Virus record (IMG/VR): IMGVR_UViG_2541047877_000006
Length of the DNA stretch: 53,577 nucleotides
From: a virus
Lineage: Duplodnaviria > Heunggongvirae > Uroviricota > Caudoviricetes
Reading direction: 5' to 3' (one strand)
In this document: piece by piece, positions 7,634 through 41,076 of the stretch
How positions within the stretch are numbered: the first letter of the stretch is position 1
Layout: every line of letters starts with the position of its first letter
Translations under genes and position numbers: made by a program
Notes under the pieces: generated by a model
Database searches by the model: none
What the model was told of the DNA's origin: nothing
Seen by the model: only the letters and a program-made list of their open reading frames with translations

Positions 7634-7891
7634 TCATCCCTCCGGCAACATCACTACATAGACATCACTGAATGCATCAAGACGACAAACAAATCCTTTA
7701 TCCATTAACGCGGCGAAGGCATCATGTACCGTATGAACAGGAAGTTCACACATTGCGGCTACTTCTTTGCGTGATGCATCATGTACCCGTCCTTTGTTAT
7801 CTGCCTTTTCAGCCAGAGCCATTAAGACAAGTTTTTGAATCGGGCTATTAAGTTTTACGTTCCATGCTTTACTAATCATGTTCATACTCAT
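7634..7891 (-). CDS. winged-helix/HTH DNA-binding protein in Cro position
   Basis: 85 aa from ATG 7891 (AGGAG SD); first gene of leftward operon, divergent from cI. Confidence 0.4.
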   Translation of the reverse strand: MSMNMISKAWNVKLNSPIQKLVLMALAEKADNKGRVHDASRKEVAAMCELPVHTVHDAFAALMDKGFVCRLDAFSDVYVVMLPEG

Positions 7892-8105
7892 CGCATTTTC
7901 TCCTATGGTTAGAGTGAACGCGCGGGCGGGCATCCCATTAGCATTAGATAGCAGTGACTGACCGCTCAACAGATCCCGCCGTTGCGTGATATTTGTTTTT
8001 CGCTTCGCAGCGACACCGGATTTTTAAAGAGCATAAGGTAAGTGCCTTTTTGTGCCTTCAGTTATCTTTTTCCTTGCGTCTTTGCAAGTATGGCCTTACC
8101 TTGTC

Positions 8106-8163
8106 TGCAAGTTTACAAAATGGAATTTTAAGATCAAGGCTTAAAATACACGTTTTGTGACTT
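8106..8163. promoter_or_regulatory. nested imperfect palindrome in cI upstream region (operator-like)
   Basis: TGCAAGTTTACAAAA...TTTTAAG atcaagg CTTAAAA...TTTTGTGACTTGCA; arms match 14/15. Confidence 0.4.
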
Positions 8164-8196
8164 GCATCAAACTTTTTGAGGTTATAGGGTAGCGAC

Positions 8197-8844
8197 ATGA
8201 AAACAAAATGGTATGACTTAGCAAAGCAGCTCATGCGGGCGCAGGGCATGAGCCAGGATTCACTCGCGGATCGTATGGGGATAACTAAAGGCGGCCTGTC
8301 ACACTGGCTGAACGGTCGCCGAGAGCCAAATCTTGAAGATATTGCGCGGATTATGCGCGAGCTTGGTCGTCGGCAGTTTACTGTTACACATGATGGCATG
8401 GTCATTGATGATTCTGTTTCTAATACACTTCAGGCCGTGCCGCCGCGTGATTTAGGTAGTTACCCGGTTATTGACTGGAAGGACACAGTAAACAATATGG
8501 ATGACGCAAGGCGTTCAGCATTACGACACGTTACGACTAGCGTTATTTGTTCAGATGACAGTTACTGGCTGGTTGCCAAAGGTGAATCAATGAACGCGCC
8601 GCAGGGGTTGAGCATCCCGGCGGGGACGATGATACTTGTGGACCCGCACGCGCCAGCTATTGACGGCAAACTGGTTATAGCCCAGCTTGAGGAAGGGCAG
8701 ATACCGACGTTTAAACAGTTGATTATTGATGGAGGTCAAAGGCTTTTACGTTCGCTCAATCCGCTGTATCCGCCAATCCCTATGAATCCAGAATCAAAAA
8801 TTATAGGCGTGGTGGTTGATGCGAAGATCGTAAACCTGCCATAA
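8197..8844 (+). CDS. cI: CI-like repressor (HTH-XRE plus S24 LexA-like peptidase)
   Basis: 215 aa; N-terminal HTH (MSQDSLADRMGITKGGLSHWLNGRREP); C-terminal GESM serine and lysine of S24 autopeptidases. Confidence 0.8.
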   Translation: MKTKWYDLAKQLMRAQGMSQDSLADRMGITKGGLSHWLNGRREPNLEDIARIMRELGRRQFTVTHDGMVIDDSVSNTLQAVPPRDLGSYPVIDWKDTVNNMDDARRSALRHVTTSVICSDDSYWLVAKGESMNAPQGLSIPAGTMILVDPHAPAIDGKLVIAQLEEGQIPTFKQLIIDGGQRLLRSLNPLYPPIPMNPESKIIGVVVDAKIVNLP

Positions 8845-8875: not shown

Positions 8876-8956
8876 CCTGGGAAACACCAAAACGTAAACA
8901 GAAAACGTTATTTATTATTTAAATATCAATGGCATATAAAATATTTTAAAAAAGTA

Positions 8957-8996
8957 TACAAAATGGATTGACTCGATGTTTTACGGGGCGTATATT
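8957..8996 (+). promoter_or_regulatory. pL-like sigma70 promoter with upstream TACAAAATGG element
   Basis: -35 TTGACT (8968-8973), 17-nt spacer, -10 TATATT (8991-8996); TTGACTCG/CGAGTCAA inverted repeat brackets it. Confidence 0.55.
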
Positions 8997-9250
8997 GCGA
9001 GTCAAAGGAAGGGCGCAGGTAACAAAAGCAACTTCCTGGCACTTTAAAAATCAGGCTTAACACCTTGTCAACCGTGGAGTAACTCCCCGATGGGGGACCG
9101 AAAGCGGCACTGATAACAAGGCGCATGGGGTGTTTAAAGCGTTACATCCCCCACGAAACCGCACGCAAGGCGACGAGTCAGCTTGCTTGGAGTGAGCAAG
9201 GTCACGCCGGGAACGGCGATGATTGCGGGATTAGTTGAAAGATGTTAAGC

Positions 9251-13007: not shown

Positions 13008-13106
13008 CAGCGTGATTGCGATCACATAAATATACATTTTGTATTGTGATTGCATATCCGTTTTGTAAGCCGAAATCAAAAGGTTTACGGTGCGGAGGAA
13101 AACAAG

Positions 13107-14284: not shown

Positions 14285-14824
14285 ATGAAAAATGATTACG
14301 GCGGCAGCCATACGCCGAAAGAAATAAAGGACTTATGGCAAACGCCAAAACCCGTTTTTAGAGGAATGGATCGAGAATTCGAGTTCGTCGCGGATGTGGC
14401 GGCAAACAAGGCAAACGCATTAATACCGCGATATATAACCGAAGAAATGGACACGCTCCATTATCCGTGGGGAGCGGTGGCGATGCCTGGTGAGTATGTC
14501 TGGATGAATCCGCCATATTCTAATCCGGGGCCATTCGTTGATAAAGCGGCGCTTGAACACAGCCGAAATCATATCGGATGCGTAATGTTATTGCCCGCTG
14601 ACATTTCTGTTAGCTGGTTTATGAACGGCGTGGAGACGGCAAACGAATGCCGATTAATCACGCGCGGGCGGCTGGCGTTTATCAATGCTGCAACAGGGAA
14701 ACCAGTAAGCGGGAACAATAAGGGGAGCTTGTTCCTGATCTGGCATCCACGATGCAGACATGAATGTATTTTCACGCAGATAACACGTAAAGAGCTATAT
14801 GCAAGAGGTGCAGAAAATGAATAA
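14285..14824 (+). CDS. phage Dam-like DNA N6-adenine methyltransferase
   Basis: WQTP motif, catalytic NPPY (VWMNPPYSN), LLPADISVSWF; typical phage Dam-family layout. Confidence 0.8.
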   Translation: MKNDYGGSHTPKEIKDLWQTPKPVFRGMDREFEFVADVAANKANALIPRYITEEMDTLHYPWGAVAMPGEYVWMNPPYSNPGPFVDKAALEHSRNHIGCVMLLPADISVSWFMNGVETANECRLITRGRLAFINAATGKPVSGNNKGSLFLIWHPRCRHECIFTQITRKELYARGAENE

Positions 14825-15137: not shown

Positions 15138-15621
15138 CAGGTTATTAGCCTGCGTTTATGTCGCCGTTTTCGTTATCATCAATCTTATTGTTAACCACTG
15201 TGGCACGTGGGTAATTCCGATCACCACGGTAGCCGCCGTGTGTGTCAATATGATGATTCGTGATTTTCTGTTATATGACGGCGGCCTTAAATGGTCGGCT
15301 ACAACATGCGCCGCCGCTGGCGCAATCACGGTGCTGATAAATTACGACGCCGGAATGGTGGCGATCGCGTCATTCGTCGCGGTTGTTTCCGGTGCGCTTA
15401 TTTCTGGCGGCGTTTACCGGGTTTTACCTGGTGATTTCGATTCTAAACGCTGGCCTGCAAATATAGCGTCCGCCATTGGCGATGCGTTAATTTTCCCAAC
15501 GCTATCGTTTATGGCATTCATGCCGGAAATATCAGCTATGCAATTCATCTCAAAAATGGCGGCGGTAACGGTGATCACTATCATCATGCGCCGCTACTTT
15601 ACGTTCGAGGGTAGGAAATGA
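15118..15621 (+). CDS. integral membrane protein, possibly YhhQ/VUT-family transporter-like
   Basis: 167 aa, about five hydrophobic helices; family assignment is from memory and tentative. Confidence 0.35.
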   Translation: MKMVAIDRLLACVYVAVFVIINLIVNHCGTWVIPITTVAAVCVNMMIRDFLLYDGGLKWSATTCAAAGAITVLINYDAGMVAIASFVAVVSGALISGGVYRVLPGDFDSKRWPANIASAIGDALIFPTLSFMAFMPEISAMQFISKMAAVTVITIIMRRYFTFEGRK

Positions 15622-16382
15622 GTGGGCTTAGAAATTGGGTGGTGTGGTCGCTGTACGACGGCAGCGGATACGCCGTTAAAGATTGGGCCGACGCTGGTTA
15701 TAAATGCTATTGCTTCAACTATGATGGCGCTAATCACGGCGATTATGAAGGCGTCAAAATCATTCATCCGAACATTGAGTATATCAACGTATGGATTGAC
15801 AGCCATTTCCTGGTAATGTTCTCCCCTGAATTGTCTGTTTATCCAGATCCTGACATTATCCTGGGCTTTCCTCCGTGCGACGATCTTGCGGTGTCCGGCG
15901 CTCGCTGGTTTGCTGATAAGCGGAAAAAAGATCCTTACTTCCAGCAGAAGGCGGCATACAACGCAAAACTGGTAGAAACGCTTGCTGATATGTACCACGT
16001 CCCGTGGATGGTGGAAAATCCGGTAGGTGCGCTGTCAACGTTATGGCGCAAACCTGATTTTATCTTCAACCCGTGCGCTTACGGTGGCTACCTGCCTGAA
16101 GACGACAAACACCCTGCTTTCCCTGAATACATAGCTGCCCGCGACGCATACACGAAGAAAACTTGTATCTGGTGCGGGAATGGATTTAAGCAGCCGCTAT
16201 TCCGGTCTGTACCTATGCCGGATGAATGGGAAGACAGCAAACAGCACGCGAAGTTAGGAGGAAAGTCGAAACGCACTAAGATGATCCGCTCACTAACGCC
16301 GCGCGGCTTTGCCCGTGCTGTATTCTTGGCTAACGACCGGGCCATCACTCGTACTACGCTTAACCGCATTTTACCGGACTAA
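15618..16382 (+). CDS. compact DNA cytosine-5 methyltransferase-like protein
   Basis: Motif-I-like LYDGSGY, motif-IV-like GFPPCDD (Cys nucleophile), motif-VI ENPVG; only 254 aa, atypical PCDD. Confidence 0.45.
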   Translation: MSGLRNWVVWSLYDGSGYAVKDWADAGYKCYCFNYDGANHGDYEGVKIIHPNIEYINVWIDSHFLVMFSPELSVYPDPDIILGFPPCDDLAVSGARWFADKRKKDPYFQQKAAYNAKLVETLADMYHVPWMVENPVGALSTLWRKPDFIFNPCAYGGYLPEDDKHPAFPEYIAARDAYTKKTCIWCGNGFKQPLFRSVPMPDEWEDSKQHAKLGGKSKRTKMIRSLTPRGFARAVFLANDRAITRTTLNRILPD

Positions 16383-16404
16383 AGTTTACAAAATGGCATC
16401 ATTG

Positions 16405-16420
16405 TGTGATGCGGATCACA
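16405..16420. promoter_or_regulatory. CRP-box-like palindrome
   Basis: TGTGATGCGGATCACA matches TGTGA-N6-TCACA; flanked by inverted TACAAAATGG copies. Confidence 0.4.
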
Positions 16421-16541
16421 TAATGGCGCTTTTTGTCTTGTTTGGGGGTATCCATTTTGTATACTTCAAGCAAACAAAATGCTCTTTAAAAATCCGGCAG
16501 CGCTGAAATGCGTAGAAATCACCTGAAAAGGAGAGAGCATT

Positions 16542-16718
16542 ATGTCTTTTGATGATTACCAATGGCATGACGACTATGAACGAGAAAGCGTCATGCGTGC
16601 AATGTGCAATGTATGCAGCACGAAGAAAGGAGGCTGTAACGAGTGCAACGAATGCTTAGAACATTGGCTAAGGGCCGGACACGCCGAAAGGCTGAACGAA
16701 ACAGAGAATCAAAAATAA
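16542..16718 (+). CDS. small Cys-rich protein (58 aa)
   Basis: AAGGAGAG SD; CNVC...CNECNEC cysteine cluster. Confidence 0.4.
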   Translation: MSFDDYQWHDDYERESVMRAMCNVCSTKKGGCNECNECLEHWLRAGHAERLNETENQK

Positions 16719-16732
16719 TCGGGGTGGTTTTT

Positions 16733-17338
16733 ATGCAAAACCCTAAAAAACCCATAAGACGCCGTTGCAAATGCTGCGGCGTTTTTTTTGAGCCTAAATA
16801 TCACAATCAAACGTGGTGCAGTGACGAATGTCTGGAAGAACTGAAGTTTGATCAGCTATGCCGCGACCGTGAGAAGGCTATGAAGGCTATGGAACGGAAG
16901 AAACGCCGTGATAGCCAGCGTGAAGAACGCAACCGGAAGCGTAAACAGTTAAATCCGCGTAGTTATTGGATCAAACAAGTTCAAAATGTATTTAACGCCT
17001 ATATTCGCGAACGTGACGCGCGGTTGCCCTGTATATCCTGCGGGACTTACTACGGTGAGCAATGCGGATGGGATGCGGGCCATTATAGGACGGTTGCCGC
17101 CGCCGGACACCTTCGCTTTAACGAGGATAATTGCCATAAACAATGCAGGCACTGCAACCAGACATTAGACGGAAATATAGGAGGATATCGCCCGGCACTG
17201 ATTCGAAAAATTGGCCTCGCCAGGGTGGTAGCACTGGAGAACAACAATGATACGCATAAATGGACGATCGCAGAATGTAAGGAGCTAATAAACATCTATC
17301 AGGCGAAATTGGACGCCTTAAGGAGAAAGGCAGCATGA
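16733..17338 (+). CDS. ninG: recombination protein NinG (Rap)
   Basis: RRRCKCC...WCSDEC, PRSYWIKQ, LPCISCG, WDAGHYR, LRFNE.N.HKQC as in lambda NinG. Confidence 0.85.
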   Translation: MQNPKKPIRRRCKCCGVFFEPKYHNQTWCSDECLEELKFDQLCRDREKAMKAMERKKRRDSQREERNRKRKQLNPRSYWIKQVQNVFNAYIRERDARLPCISCGTYYGEQCGWDAGHYRTVAAAGHLRFNEDNCHKQCRHCNQTLDGNIGGYRPALIRKIGLARVVALENNNDTHKWTIAECKELINIYQAKLDALRRKAA

Positions 17339-21660: not shown

Positions 21661-21774
21661 GGCGTTGGACAACCATAAATGTGATCTGTATCACAATGTA
21701 TACGAAATGGCATTGTTTCGACAGTGCCATTTTGTTATATATAAGCCACGGAAAGACGGAGGGGAGGCAAGAAG

Positions 21775-21915
21775 ATGAGCGCTAACGCTAAATATCCGGC
21801 ATGGGTTTTTGAGTTATACGCCCGCTACTTTGAATTGCTGGCACAAGGTGAAGAAGCATTAAGCATTGACGAGTACGCGGAGTGCTTAGGGTTTAAAGGA
21901 GACGAAGAAGCATAA
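21775..21915 (+). CDS. small hypothetical protein (46 aa)
   Basis: GGAGGGGAGG SD; followed by GGGGCCggatGGCCCC stem-loop. Confidence 0.3.
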   Translation: MSANAKYPAWVFELYARYFELLAQGEEALSIDEYAECLGFKGDEEA

Positions 21916-37263: not shown

Positions 37264-37923
37264 TTAATTCCAGTTGCAAGCGTTTTTCACTTTGTCGATG
37301 TGGTTATAAAGACCATCAATGTTAAACACTGCTTTCTCAATGTCGCCAGCTTCCGGCACTACTTCAATGATGAATTGTTTTTCGTTAACCAGTTTTTTAA
37401 TCATTGGGATGGCTTTTTTGCCGTCCCATAATCCAAGAGCTTTATAATTAGTTGACCGCCACCACTCAGTAGCTACAGCTTTGTGAACGCCGATCCGGTA
37501 GTTAATATAAGTAGTGTCCCCGGCGTCAGTTACATGGTGTGACCATGCTACGAACATTTTTGTTTTATTACCCTGGCAAGCGATTGTTAATACCGGTTTA
37601 TTCTTATCCTGTGCCTTCAGTGTCGGGAAAGCATCAAGACTTCCGCTGAATTGTTCTGCTTTCACAAAAAGGAATACGTTTTTTGCGTCCTGCATATCAT
37701 CTTTTCTTTCAACTACAAGCCACTGTTTACCAGCATTTTCTTTTTCTAACTGTGCATCGTATGCGGCTTGTTTTGCTTGTTGTTCTGCAAGCCATTTAGC
37801 ATTTTTCTCTGCTAATGCTTGTTGCTCTTGATTGGTCACTATAGGCGCTTTTTCATTATCCTCATTGCAACCAACCAGACCCAATACCGCCGCAATCATT
37901 GCCACTTTTGCTAACCGTTTCAT
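37264..37923 (-). CDS. lipoprotein of unknown function (219 aa)
   Basis: Signal peptide with lipobox LVGC; Q/A/K-rich region then globular domain; own promoter. Confidence 0.5.
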   Translation of the reverse strand: MKRLAKVAMIAAVLGLVGCNEDNEKAPIVTNQEQQALAEKNAKWLAEQQAKQAAYDAQLEKENAGKQWLVVERKDDMQDAKNVFLFVKAEQFSGSLDAFPTLKAQDKNKPVLTIACQGNKTKMFVAWSHHVTDAGDTTYINYRIGVHKAVATEWWRSTNYKALGLWDGKKAIPMIKKLVNEKQFIIEVVPEAGDIEKAVFNIDGLYNHIDKVKNACNWN

Positions 37924-37969: not shown

Positions 37970-38011
37970 TTATACAAAATGGAGTCGTTGAAGTAAAGCC
38001 ATTTTGTATAA
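37970..38011. promoter_or_regulatory. 42-bp palindrome with back-to-back divergent promoters
   Basis: TTATACAAAATGG-16 nt-CCATTTTGTATAA; minus strand -35 TTTACT and -10 TATAAG, plus strand -10 TATAAA. Confidence 0.5.
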
Positions 38012-38050
38012 AATAGATACACAGATCACATTTTTGCATGAGGTTAAATC

Positions 38051-40947: not shown

Positions 40948-40987
40948 TATATACATCTTGTTGCGTGCTATGTGAAGCCATTTTGTA
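40948..40987 (-). promoter_or_regulatory. sigma70-like promoter for minus-strand cassette, with TACAAAATGG element
   Basis: Minus strand: GTTTACAAAATGG then -35 TTCACA, 17-nt spacer, -10 TATATA. Confidence 0.45.
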
Positions 40988-41017
40988 AACTAGCTATAAT
41001 CATTGTGACAATGATCT

Positions 41018-41042: not shown

Positions 41043-41076
41043 GATATATACAAAATGTAACTTGTGGGGGGGTTTT

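Follow-up and report, generated by a model that had tools for sequence, protein, structure and literature searches.

The window analyzed here, the whole 53,577-nucleotide stretch of IMG/VR virus record IMGVR_UViG_2541047877_000006 (Caudoviricetes), contains a 159-bp gap between the stop codon of the open reading frame (ORF) at 15618-16382 and the ATG at 16542. Within this gap lies an 81-bp stretch, 16384-16464, in which a palindrome matching the binding site of the cyclic AMP (cAMP) receptor protein CRP stands between two inverted copies of a recurrent 13-mer. Judged by its sequence, the window is a prophage of the mEpimmI (mEp021-like) type of temperate coliphage. The region around the palindrome is 84-92% identical to that of the Escherichia phages MagusPhagus, mEp554, mEp013, mEp010, mEp515, mEp044, and mEp021, and among 5426 complete E. 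coli genomes 35 carry related prophages. The mEpimmI phages are Nus-dependent, non-lambdoid temperate coliphages that have a CI-like repressor, an N-like antiterminator designated Gp17, a Q-like protein, and an unusual number of nut sites, three; in human gut E. coli they are reported to equal lambdoid phages in frequency (PMC11893012). An initial annotation of this DNA called the gene before the gap cytosine-methylase-like, and the annotation of relatives agrees, although the ORF has no Pfam match at E<=0.01. The downstream genes it named as ninG, rusA, and Q-like are all supported by Pfam (NinG, E=1e-66; RusA, E=1e-16; Q antiterminator, E=2e-29). A search of the whole window against Rfam gave no match at gathering thresholds. 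Features are listed in Table 1.

The box TGTGATGCGGATCACA lies across the center of the palindrome and matches both CRP half-sites perfectly, just as the initial annotation described it. Throughout the window, the pattern TGTGA-N6-TCACA with one mismatch or fewer is seen 6 times against 1.54 expected, a number that 0 of 100 shuffles reach; exact copies occur twice, at 16405 and 21680. The exact pattern GTGAT-N4-ATCAC occurs three times (13012, 16406, and 21681), where base composition predicts about 0.06. The flanking 13-mer, GTTTACAAAATGG on the left and its inverted copy CCATTTTGTATAC on the right, is likewise found where that annotation placed it, and it is truly recurrent, with 16 matches at two mismatches or fewer against an expectation of 2.45 +/- 1.7 (0 of 100 shuffles reach 16). 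These sequences, at these coordinates, are well beyond chance. A full-text literature search with the 10-mer cores of the boxes returned unrelated primers only, and nothing on the 13-mer was found in the literature searched.

Table 1. Coordinates of features at the locus and of similarly built modules elsewhere in the window.
Feature	Coordinates	Strand	Remarks
Upstream gene	15618..16382	+	Last gene before the cassette; DNA cytosine methyltransferase in the annotation of relatives
Left 13-mer copy GTTTACAAAATGG	16384..16396	+	In the predicted RNA fold, its A-tract is paired to the U-tract
Imperfect palindrome, 15-bp arms, 4-nt center	16396..16429	+	RNA hairpin homologous to predicted TERM_4 (t4) of mEp021
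CRP-consensus box TGTGATGCGGATCACA	16405..16420		10/10 core matches; center between 16412 and 16413
T5 tract directly after the hairpin (terminator tail)	16430..16434	+	Degenerate in some relatives
-35-like hexamer TTGTTT	16438..16443	+	17 nt downstream of the box; TTGT invariant in relatives
Right inverted 13-mer copy CCATTTTGTATAC	16452..16464	-	One mismatch to GTTTACAAAATGG; plus strand reads CCATTTTG plus TATAC
-10-like hexamer TATACT	16460..16465	+	16-nt spacer from TTGTTT; invariant in relatives
nutR2 boxA TGCTCTTTAAAAATCCGG	16480..16497	+	18-mer identical to nutL boxA (minus strand, 8016-8033)
nutR2 boxB hairpin AGCGC-UGAAAU-GCGU, A-rich loop	~16499..16514	+	Predicted 4-bp stem and 6-nt loop; conserved
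Cys-rich ORF of 58 aa, first downstream gene	16542..16718	+	Putative NinF in mEp021 annotation
Strong intrinsic terminator, GC stem and T8	16756..16789	+	5' end of ninG, ~290 nt past nutR2; -17.2 kcal/mol
Module C: box CGTGATTGCGATCACA, 17 nt, TTGTGA, 16 nt ending CCGTTTTG, TAAGCC	13011..13071	+	Upstream of ORF starting at 13101
Module B: box TGTGATCTGTATCACA, 17 nt, TTGTTT, 16 nt ending CCATTTTG, TTATAT(A)	21680..21741	+	Upstream of ORF starting at 21776
pL-type module: box TTTGATGCAAGTCACA (9/10), 18 nt, TTGATC, 16 nt ending CCATTTTG, TAAACT	8110..8171	-	Reads toward nutL

The locus was collected from 56 related phage, prophage, and viral-contig sequences, which amount to 38-39 distinct sequences. 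The box core is retained at 9 or 10 of its 10 positions in 38 of 39 distinct relatives and is displaced by a 1-nt deletion in the remaining one. Variation in the core is confined to its first T (T in 14, C in 24), and in CRP sites generally this position of the core is under the weakest constraint. The center of the palindrome varies freely at all four bases, while the spacing from box to promoter is unchanged. The invariant or nearly invariant parts are TTTACAAAATGG within the left 13-mer copy (invariant in 38 unique relatives), the arms of the palindrome including GGCGTCATTG and TAATGGCGC outside the CRP core, the TTGT, the block TCCATTTTGTATACT (a single distinct sequence has CCG for CCA), and the nut site; the 5-7 nt between the TTGT, this block, and boxA vary heavily. 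Besides the palindrome center, variation is found in the bases past the T-tract and in the first part of the promoter spacer, with the 7 nt after TTGT varying among relatives, and almost no insertions or deletions occur. The conserved cassette, with its geometry of box and putative promoter, is a solid observation.

The two hexamers downstream of the box form a putative promoter, likely a weak one of the sigma70 type to judge from its sequence, with a predicted transcription start at about 16472. The right 13-mer copy makes up the last 8 nt of the promoter spacer and the first five bases of the -10-like hexamer. The idea of an inverted pair bracketing the palindrome holds insofar as both copies are present, but the right one, because it sits at the spacer/-10 position of the putative promoter, is probably no separate flanking site. 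More widely, the 13-mer is promoter-associated: 10 of its 16 copies are directed at the start of a gene no more than about 130 nt away, and within rightward promoter regions three copies have the opposite orientation. To our knowledge, CCATTTTG matches no known sigma70 element; this part of the 13-mer may double as the binding site of a phage regulator. An extended -10 was considered and rejected, as the TG of CCATTTTG directly adjoins the hexamer and so is one base too near for such an element. Hand checks against consensus sequences gave only partial and unconvincing resemblances to sigma54 (wrong GG/GC spacing), sigma32 (spacer too short), IHF, Fis, and OmpR/CpxR half-sites.

The published map places nutR2 downstream of the cytosine methyltransferase gene (PMC11893012). 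Adjoining the 81-bp stretch, 16480-16514 carries a boxA-like sequence and a boxB hairpin at that position, and the boxA begins 14 nt past the -10-like hexamer, about 8 nt past the predicted start. The identity of its boxA with that of nutL agrees with the published statement that, of the nut sites, nutL and nutR2 resemble each other most (PMC11893012). The boxA-like sequence of nutR1, GCACTTTAAAAATCAGG, is found at 9039-9055 on the plus strand, 36 nt past the predicted start of pR. The terminator in the 5' end of ninG is likely a target of Gp17 antitermination, and ARNold terminators are annotated at the matching position in mEp554, mEp010, mEp013, and mEp515. With so strong a terminator inside ninG, expression of ninG, rusA, and Q would therefore need Gp17 (N-like) antitermination in addition to an activator.

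The arrangement at this locus, called module A below, is repeated elsewhere in the window. The layout downstream of all three exact GTGAT-N4-ATCAC boxes is one and the same, namely 17 nt, a TTGnnn hexamer, a 16-nt spacer whose last bases are CC(A/G)TTTTG, and a hexamer like TAnnnT, and the modules at 13011, 16405, and 21680 each occupy one of the rare sizeable intergenic gaps, with a Shine-Dalgarno sequence and an ATG 25-70 nt further on. In modules B and C, as compared across relatives, the center of the box is variable and the spacing is fixed. Module C is kept in 16 unique relatives, with 8-10 of 10 core matches. Module B, compared in 24 relatives, has a conserved left half and a right half that reads TCACA or else TCGCA/CCGCA; its gap between box and -35 hexamer contains a plus-strand copy of the 13-mer. 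The pL-type module, whose box occupies 8156-8171, is conserved in mEp021.

Some further observations concern these modules. Module C has a second, degenerate copy of the 13-mer, ACATTTTGTATTG, at 13034-13046, in tandem with the main copy and 24 nt upstream of it, and this copy overlaps the -35 hexamer (13044-13049). A reading of module B as the late promoter pR' was considered but is not claimed, since 2.2 kb separate it from the demonstrated t5-type terminator, which immediately precedes the holin gene. In each of the three CRP-like boxes a conserved GATC overlaps one half-site (16414-16417, 13020-13023, and 21683-21686). Its context is GATCACA in 30 of 30 variants of module A with an A at box position 11 and in 15 of 16 for module C, and TGTGATCT in 13 of 14 for module B. 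The phage encodes an N6-adenine methyltransferase at 14285-14824, and Dam-sensitive binding at the boxes that bear GATC is conceivable.

The reading we favor, to which we assign about an even chance of being right, is that of a composite control cassette made up of a t4-like palindrome with a CRP box, a CRP-stimulated internal promoter, and nutR2. Computation shows the sequences of this cassette, their conservation, their geometry, and the fold energies; that the promoter is active, that CRP binds, and that the terminator works is what we infer. The activator, a dimeric one and most likely the host's cAMP-CRP, would bind the box in a class I geometry like that of the lac promoter lacP1 and stimulate the internal promoter, to which the right 13-mer would contribute the conserved end of the spacer and the -10 region. 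Transcripts from this promoter would acquire the Gp17 complex at nutR2 and only then pass the ninG terminator to rusA and Q, and early transcription arriving from pR would be partly stopped or insulated by the t4 hairpin. Control of the ninF, ninG, rusA, and Q genes by cAMP-CRP or a similar dimer, as the initial annotation proposed, is plausible, because the arms are invariant, the gap to the -35 hexamer is that of lacP1, and the geometry is repeated at other loci. That proposal survives as far as the regulatory site goes, with invariant arms, a free center, and 17 nt to TTGT, but it was incomplete, having overlooked the terminator, the promoter, and nutR2. That the palindrome behaves as a protein-binding DNA site upstream of a putative promoter is supported by the pattern of conservation.

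A number of points weigh against the composite cassette. TTGTTT-16-TATACT scores just 8/12 as a promoter, and it falls below the threshold of a simple scanner because its -35 hexamer matches at only 3 of 6 positions. The center of the box lies at about -59.5 to -60.5 from the predicted start and not at the canonical -61.5, a consequence of a spacer of 16 nt and not 18, and the start site itself is a predicted one. A CRP site alone leaves the invariance of GGCGTCATTG and TAATGGCGC unexplained, and the CCATTTTG in the spacer could instead bind a phage regulator. The site nutR2 needs no promoter of its own, as transcripts from pR could reload Gp17 there. No CRP-like box accompanies pR, the strongest early promoter, and in about half of the relatives the right half-site of module B is degenerate (TCGCA/CCGCA, 7-9/10).

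A wider proposal is more tentative, and we hold it possible but somewhat doubtful. The mEpimmI phages would use a set of activator-dependent internal promoters for part of their delayed-early program. These promoters would share a phage-specific core, TTGnnn-N8-CCATTTTG-TAWACT, three or four of them would have a CRP box at lacP1 spacing, and the one described here would serve nutR2, so that the route to Q would be gated by cAMP-CRP and Gp17 together. The GATC conserved in every box could add sensitivity to Dam methylation, and with it to replication state.

The palindrome might instead be the intrinsic terminator t4 and nothing else, ending or attenuating the early-right transcript after the methylase gene, with the CRP match incidental. 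Its arms (16396-16410 and 16415-16429) and T5 tail come soon after the stop codon, and a simple scan for terminator-like structures detects the stem with its TTTTT. The predicted hairpin reaches -22.6 kcal/mol on the plus strand (z = -4.9) and -14.8 on the minus strand, the plus strand being the stabler because two of the pairs are G-U. The GenBank record of mEp021 (MH706966) labels the homologous palindrome TERM_4, with a score of 79, in a TransTermHP-type annotation; t3 and t4 are predicted terminators only, the demonstrated ones being t1, t2, and t5 (PMC11893012). However, the same GTGAT-N4-ATCAC recurs at 13011 and 21680 with identical promoter spacing and without the hairpin extension or T-tract, where the folds have z-scores of -1.8 and +0.2. 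Among 31 distinct sequences the hairpin shows 0 compensatory changes; in 20 of the 31 a C-A mismatch occupies pair 18-33, and two pairs stay paired by way of one-sided changes. The U-tract, TTTTT or TTTTC in most relatives, has decayed to TATTC or CATTC in several, mEp021 included. With arms kept as sequence, a free center and downstream spacer, and no compensatory changes, selection therefore appears to act on the DNA sequence and not on RNA pairing alone. A terminator with no other role is disfavored, and we think it unlikely; terminator function as such is compatible with the composite cassette, and the hairpin is still compatible with the predicted terminator.

A second explanation that we hold improbable makes the palindrome the operator of a dimeric regulator of the phage itself, either the Cro-like MarR/helix-turn-helix protein (~7634-7969) or the CI-like Rep021 homolog (8197-8844). 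The mEpimmI phages share repressors of about 96% identity and show cross-immunity, so their operators should be invariant, as the arms of the palindrome are. Each arm is conserved over 11-15 bp, farther than the 16-bp CRP core reaches, and a 9/10 box occurs in the control region of pL and the repressor gene (8156-8171). That box, however, lies upstream of the pL -35 hexamer and not over the promoter core, and the presumed pR, a near-consensus TTGACT-17-TATATT at 8968-8996 that a repressor of the lytic cycle must control, has no such palindrome; on these grounds the CRP-like palindrome does not fit a CI/Cro-type operator. At the locus itself the box stands upstream of the -35 hexamer at lacP1 spacing, an activator's position and not one that overlaps the core. 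Its sequence is an exact TGTGA-N6-TCACA with the G that is diagnostic of CRP, where FNR-type sites would have TTGAT, and its variation is limited to the first T of the left half-site.

Other symmetrical elements are present in the early control regions. Near pL and the repressor gene are a CTTGC-N6-GCAAG (8074-8089) and a 61-bp imperfect palindrome (8106-8166), both of them candidate operators of the CI-like repressor and both absent from the description in PMC11893012. At pR, a 13-mer copy in opposite orientation (8954-8966) abuts the -35 hexamer in the position of an UP element, and an 8-bp inverted repeat, TTGACTCG...CGAGTCAA, brackets the promoter core.

A third alternative, and a very improbable one in our estimation, takes the inverted 13-mers as the functional unit, either as sites for a looping or occluding protein or as a divergent pair of -10 elements, with the palindrome between them incidental. 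In the divergent version the left copy would drive a leftward antisense transcript from a promoter-like ATCACA-16-TAAACT on the minus strand, in which the ATCACA stands at the 8+8 nt spacing of the modules and most relatives retain the TAAAnT. The 13-mer is strongly over-represented, is the best sequence common to the pL and pR regions, and forms inverted pairs in other control regions, at 8111/8149 and 37970/37999. Yet the copies are separated by different distances (16, 25, and 55 nt), and the 13-mer has no two-fold symmetry; on hand inspection only its CA...TG is symmetric, and the flanks differ among copies. Compared with a CI/Cro-type operator, a two-fold symmetric site of about 14-18 bp, the 13-mer agrees in its presence at both pL (8111) and pR (8954) and differs in its asymmetry. 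No gene lies leftward of the left copy, and in the predicted RNA fold the two copies are not paired with each other. Class II activation of such a leftward promoter by CRP was also rejected, as the center of the box would be at about -37.5 and not at -41.5. The geometry of box and promoter common to three loci is also left unexplained. A mobile element or recombination scar with terminal inverted repeats, of the kind of a miniature inverted-repeat transposable element, would fit the inverted ends (13 bp each, one mismatch, 55 bp between them) and the scatter of end copies over the genome, but we regard it as extremely improbable given a fixed position and invariant internal spacing in all 56 related loci, no flanking direct duplication, other 13-mer copies that are mostly single, and a scan of genome contigs for the paired pattern that gave no recognizable relatives, its 39 matches falling in taxonomically unrelated genomes (all but one of them metagenome-assembled) and probably due to chance.

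Two further regions of the window with 13-mer copies stand out. At 37970-38011 a perfect inverted pair, TTATACAAAATGG ... CCATTTTGTATAA, with 16 nt between its members, lies in the divergent gap between a TagO-like moron on the minus strand (37264-37923) and the tape-measure gene (38051); close by, at 38024, there is a GATCACA, a CRP half-site. Directly after the 13-mer copy at 40978, the interval 40991-41015 contains a TATAAT and a 17-bp palindrome resembling a Fur box, ATCATTGTGACAATGAT, upstream of a tail gene at 41062.

Records for mEp554, mEp010, and MagusPhagus annotate a coding sequence of 37 aa across the cassette (16393-16506), its ATG inside the left 13-mer. We rejected it as a small protein: it is probably no gene, because 12 of 38 distinct relatives, mEp021 among them, have it truncated or frameshifted. 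In the prophage of E. coli STEC308 (NZ_CP091020), an HNH endonuclease replaces the methylase upstream of the cassette, and homology restarts some 35 nt ahead of the left 13-mer, so that the cassette travels with the nin/Q module downstream of it.

If functional, a consensus CRP box spaced as in lacP1 would wire the expression of Q, and hence lysis, to the carbon status of the host; if the CRP reading is true, the sugar status of the cell may bear on the genes that lead to Q. That wiring would be widened by the conserved boxes at pL and at the two other promoter-like modules. An internal promoter directly upstream of nutR2, if real, would give a reason for the third nut site. Should the CRP reading be wrong, the predicted terminator t4 still overlaps a strongly constrained DNA palindrome, and the small ORF annotated here in some records is still probably no gene. 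A CRP-type activator site upstream of a sigma70 promoter is a known arrangement; the interest lies in its context, the overlap with a terminator and a promoter that feeds a nut site.

The closest known counterpart in geometry is lacP1. The lacP1 sequence used for the comparison matches at 100% over the 129 nt upstream of lacZ in K-12 strains. In lacP1, as in modules A, B, and C, 17 nt separate the 16-bp CRP site from the -35 hexamer, so that relative to the -35 the geometry of the phage box is, in sequence terms, identical. Class I sites are centered near -61.5, or farther out at -71.5, -82.5, and so on, and in class I activation the C-terminal domain of the RNA polymerase alpha subunit (alpha-CTD) is placed between CRP and sigma region 4. 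Both promoters have cores below consensus, and a hand count against the 22-bp CRP consensus gives 14/22 for lacP1 and for the phage box alike, with the better core in the phage (10/10). The spacer is 16 nt in the phage and 18 nt in lacP1, with box centers at about -59.5 and -61.5, respectively. The putative phage promoter differs further in its weaker -35 (TTGTTT), in the conserved CCATTTTG of its spacer, and in a box that lies within a longer terminator-like palindrome; the likeness is one of sequence.

Among phages, coliphage T1 provides a precedent, with cAMP-CRP directly regulating several promoters (pir, dam, and recE) and tying the lysis decision to sugar uptake (PMC6737242). Phage T1 and the mEp021-type phages are alike in that several promoters of one coliphage have CRP sites, in T1, or CRP-like boxes, here. 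In T1, however, CRP represses, and there is no nut/antitermination circuit, whereas the geometry seen here is of the activator type. The sole link in sequence that was seen between the two groups is that 83 bp of the methylase gene match the DNA of T1-like phages at 81-83% identity.

In mEp021 the locus is homologous to that described here, the palindrome corresponding to TERM_4 and the boxA/boxB to nutR2, and the published account of that phage describes no promoter, CRP-like box, or 13-mer at t4/nutR2 (PMC11893012). In the plan of phage lambda, pL-nutL and pR-nutR each consist of a promoter and a boxA/boxB, followed by terminators that only N-modified polymerase passes, and the pL-nutL and pR-nutR1 of the window follow this plan. 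Lambda has two nut sites, each with a promoter of the immunity region. In the mEp021-type phages, in contrast, a third nut site lies 7.5 kb further downstream and is preceded by a terminator-like hairpin and by a putative internal promoter dependent on an activator.

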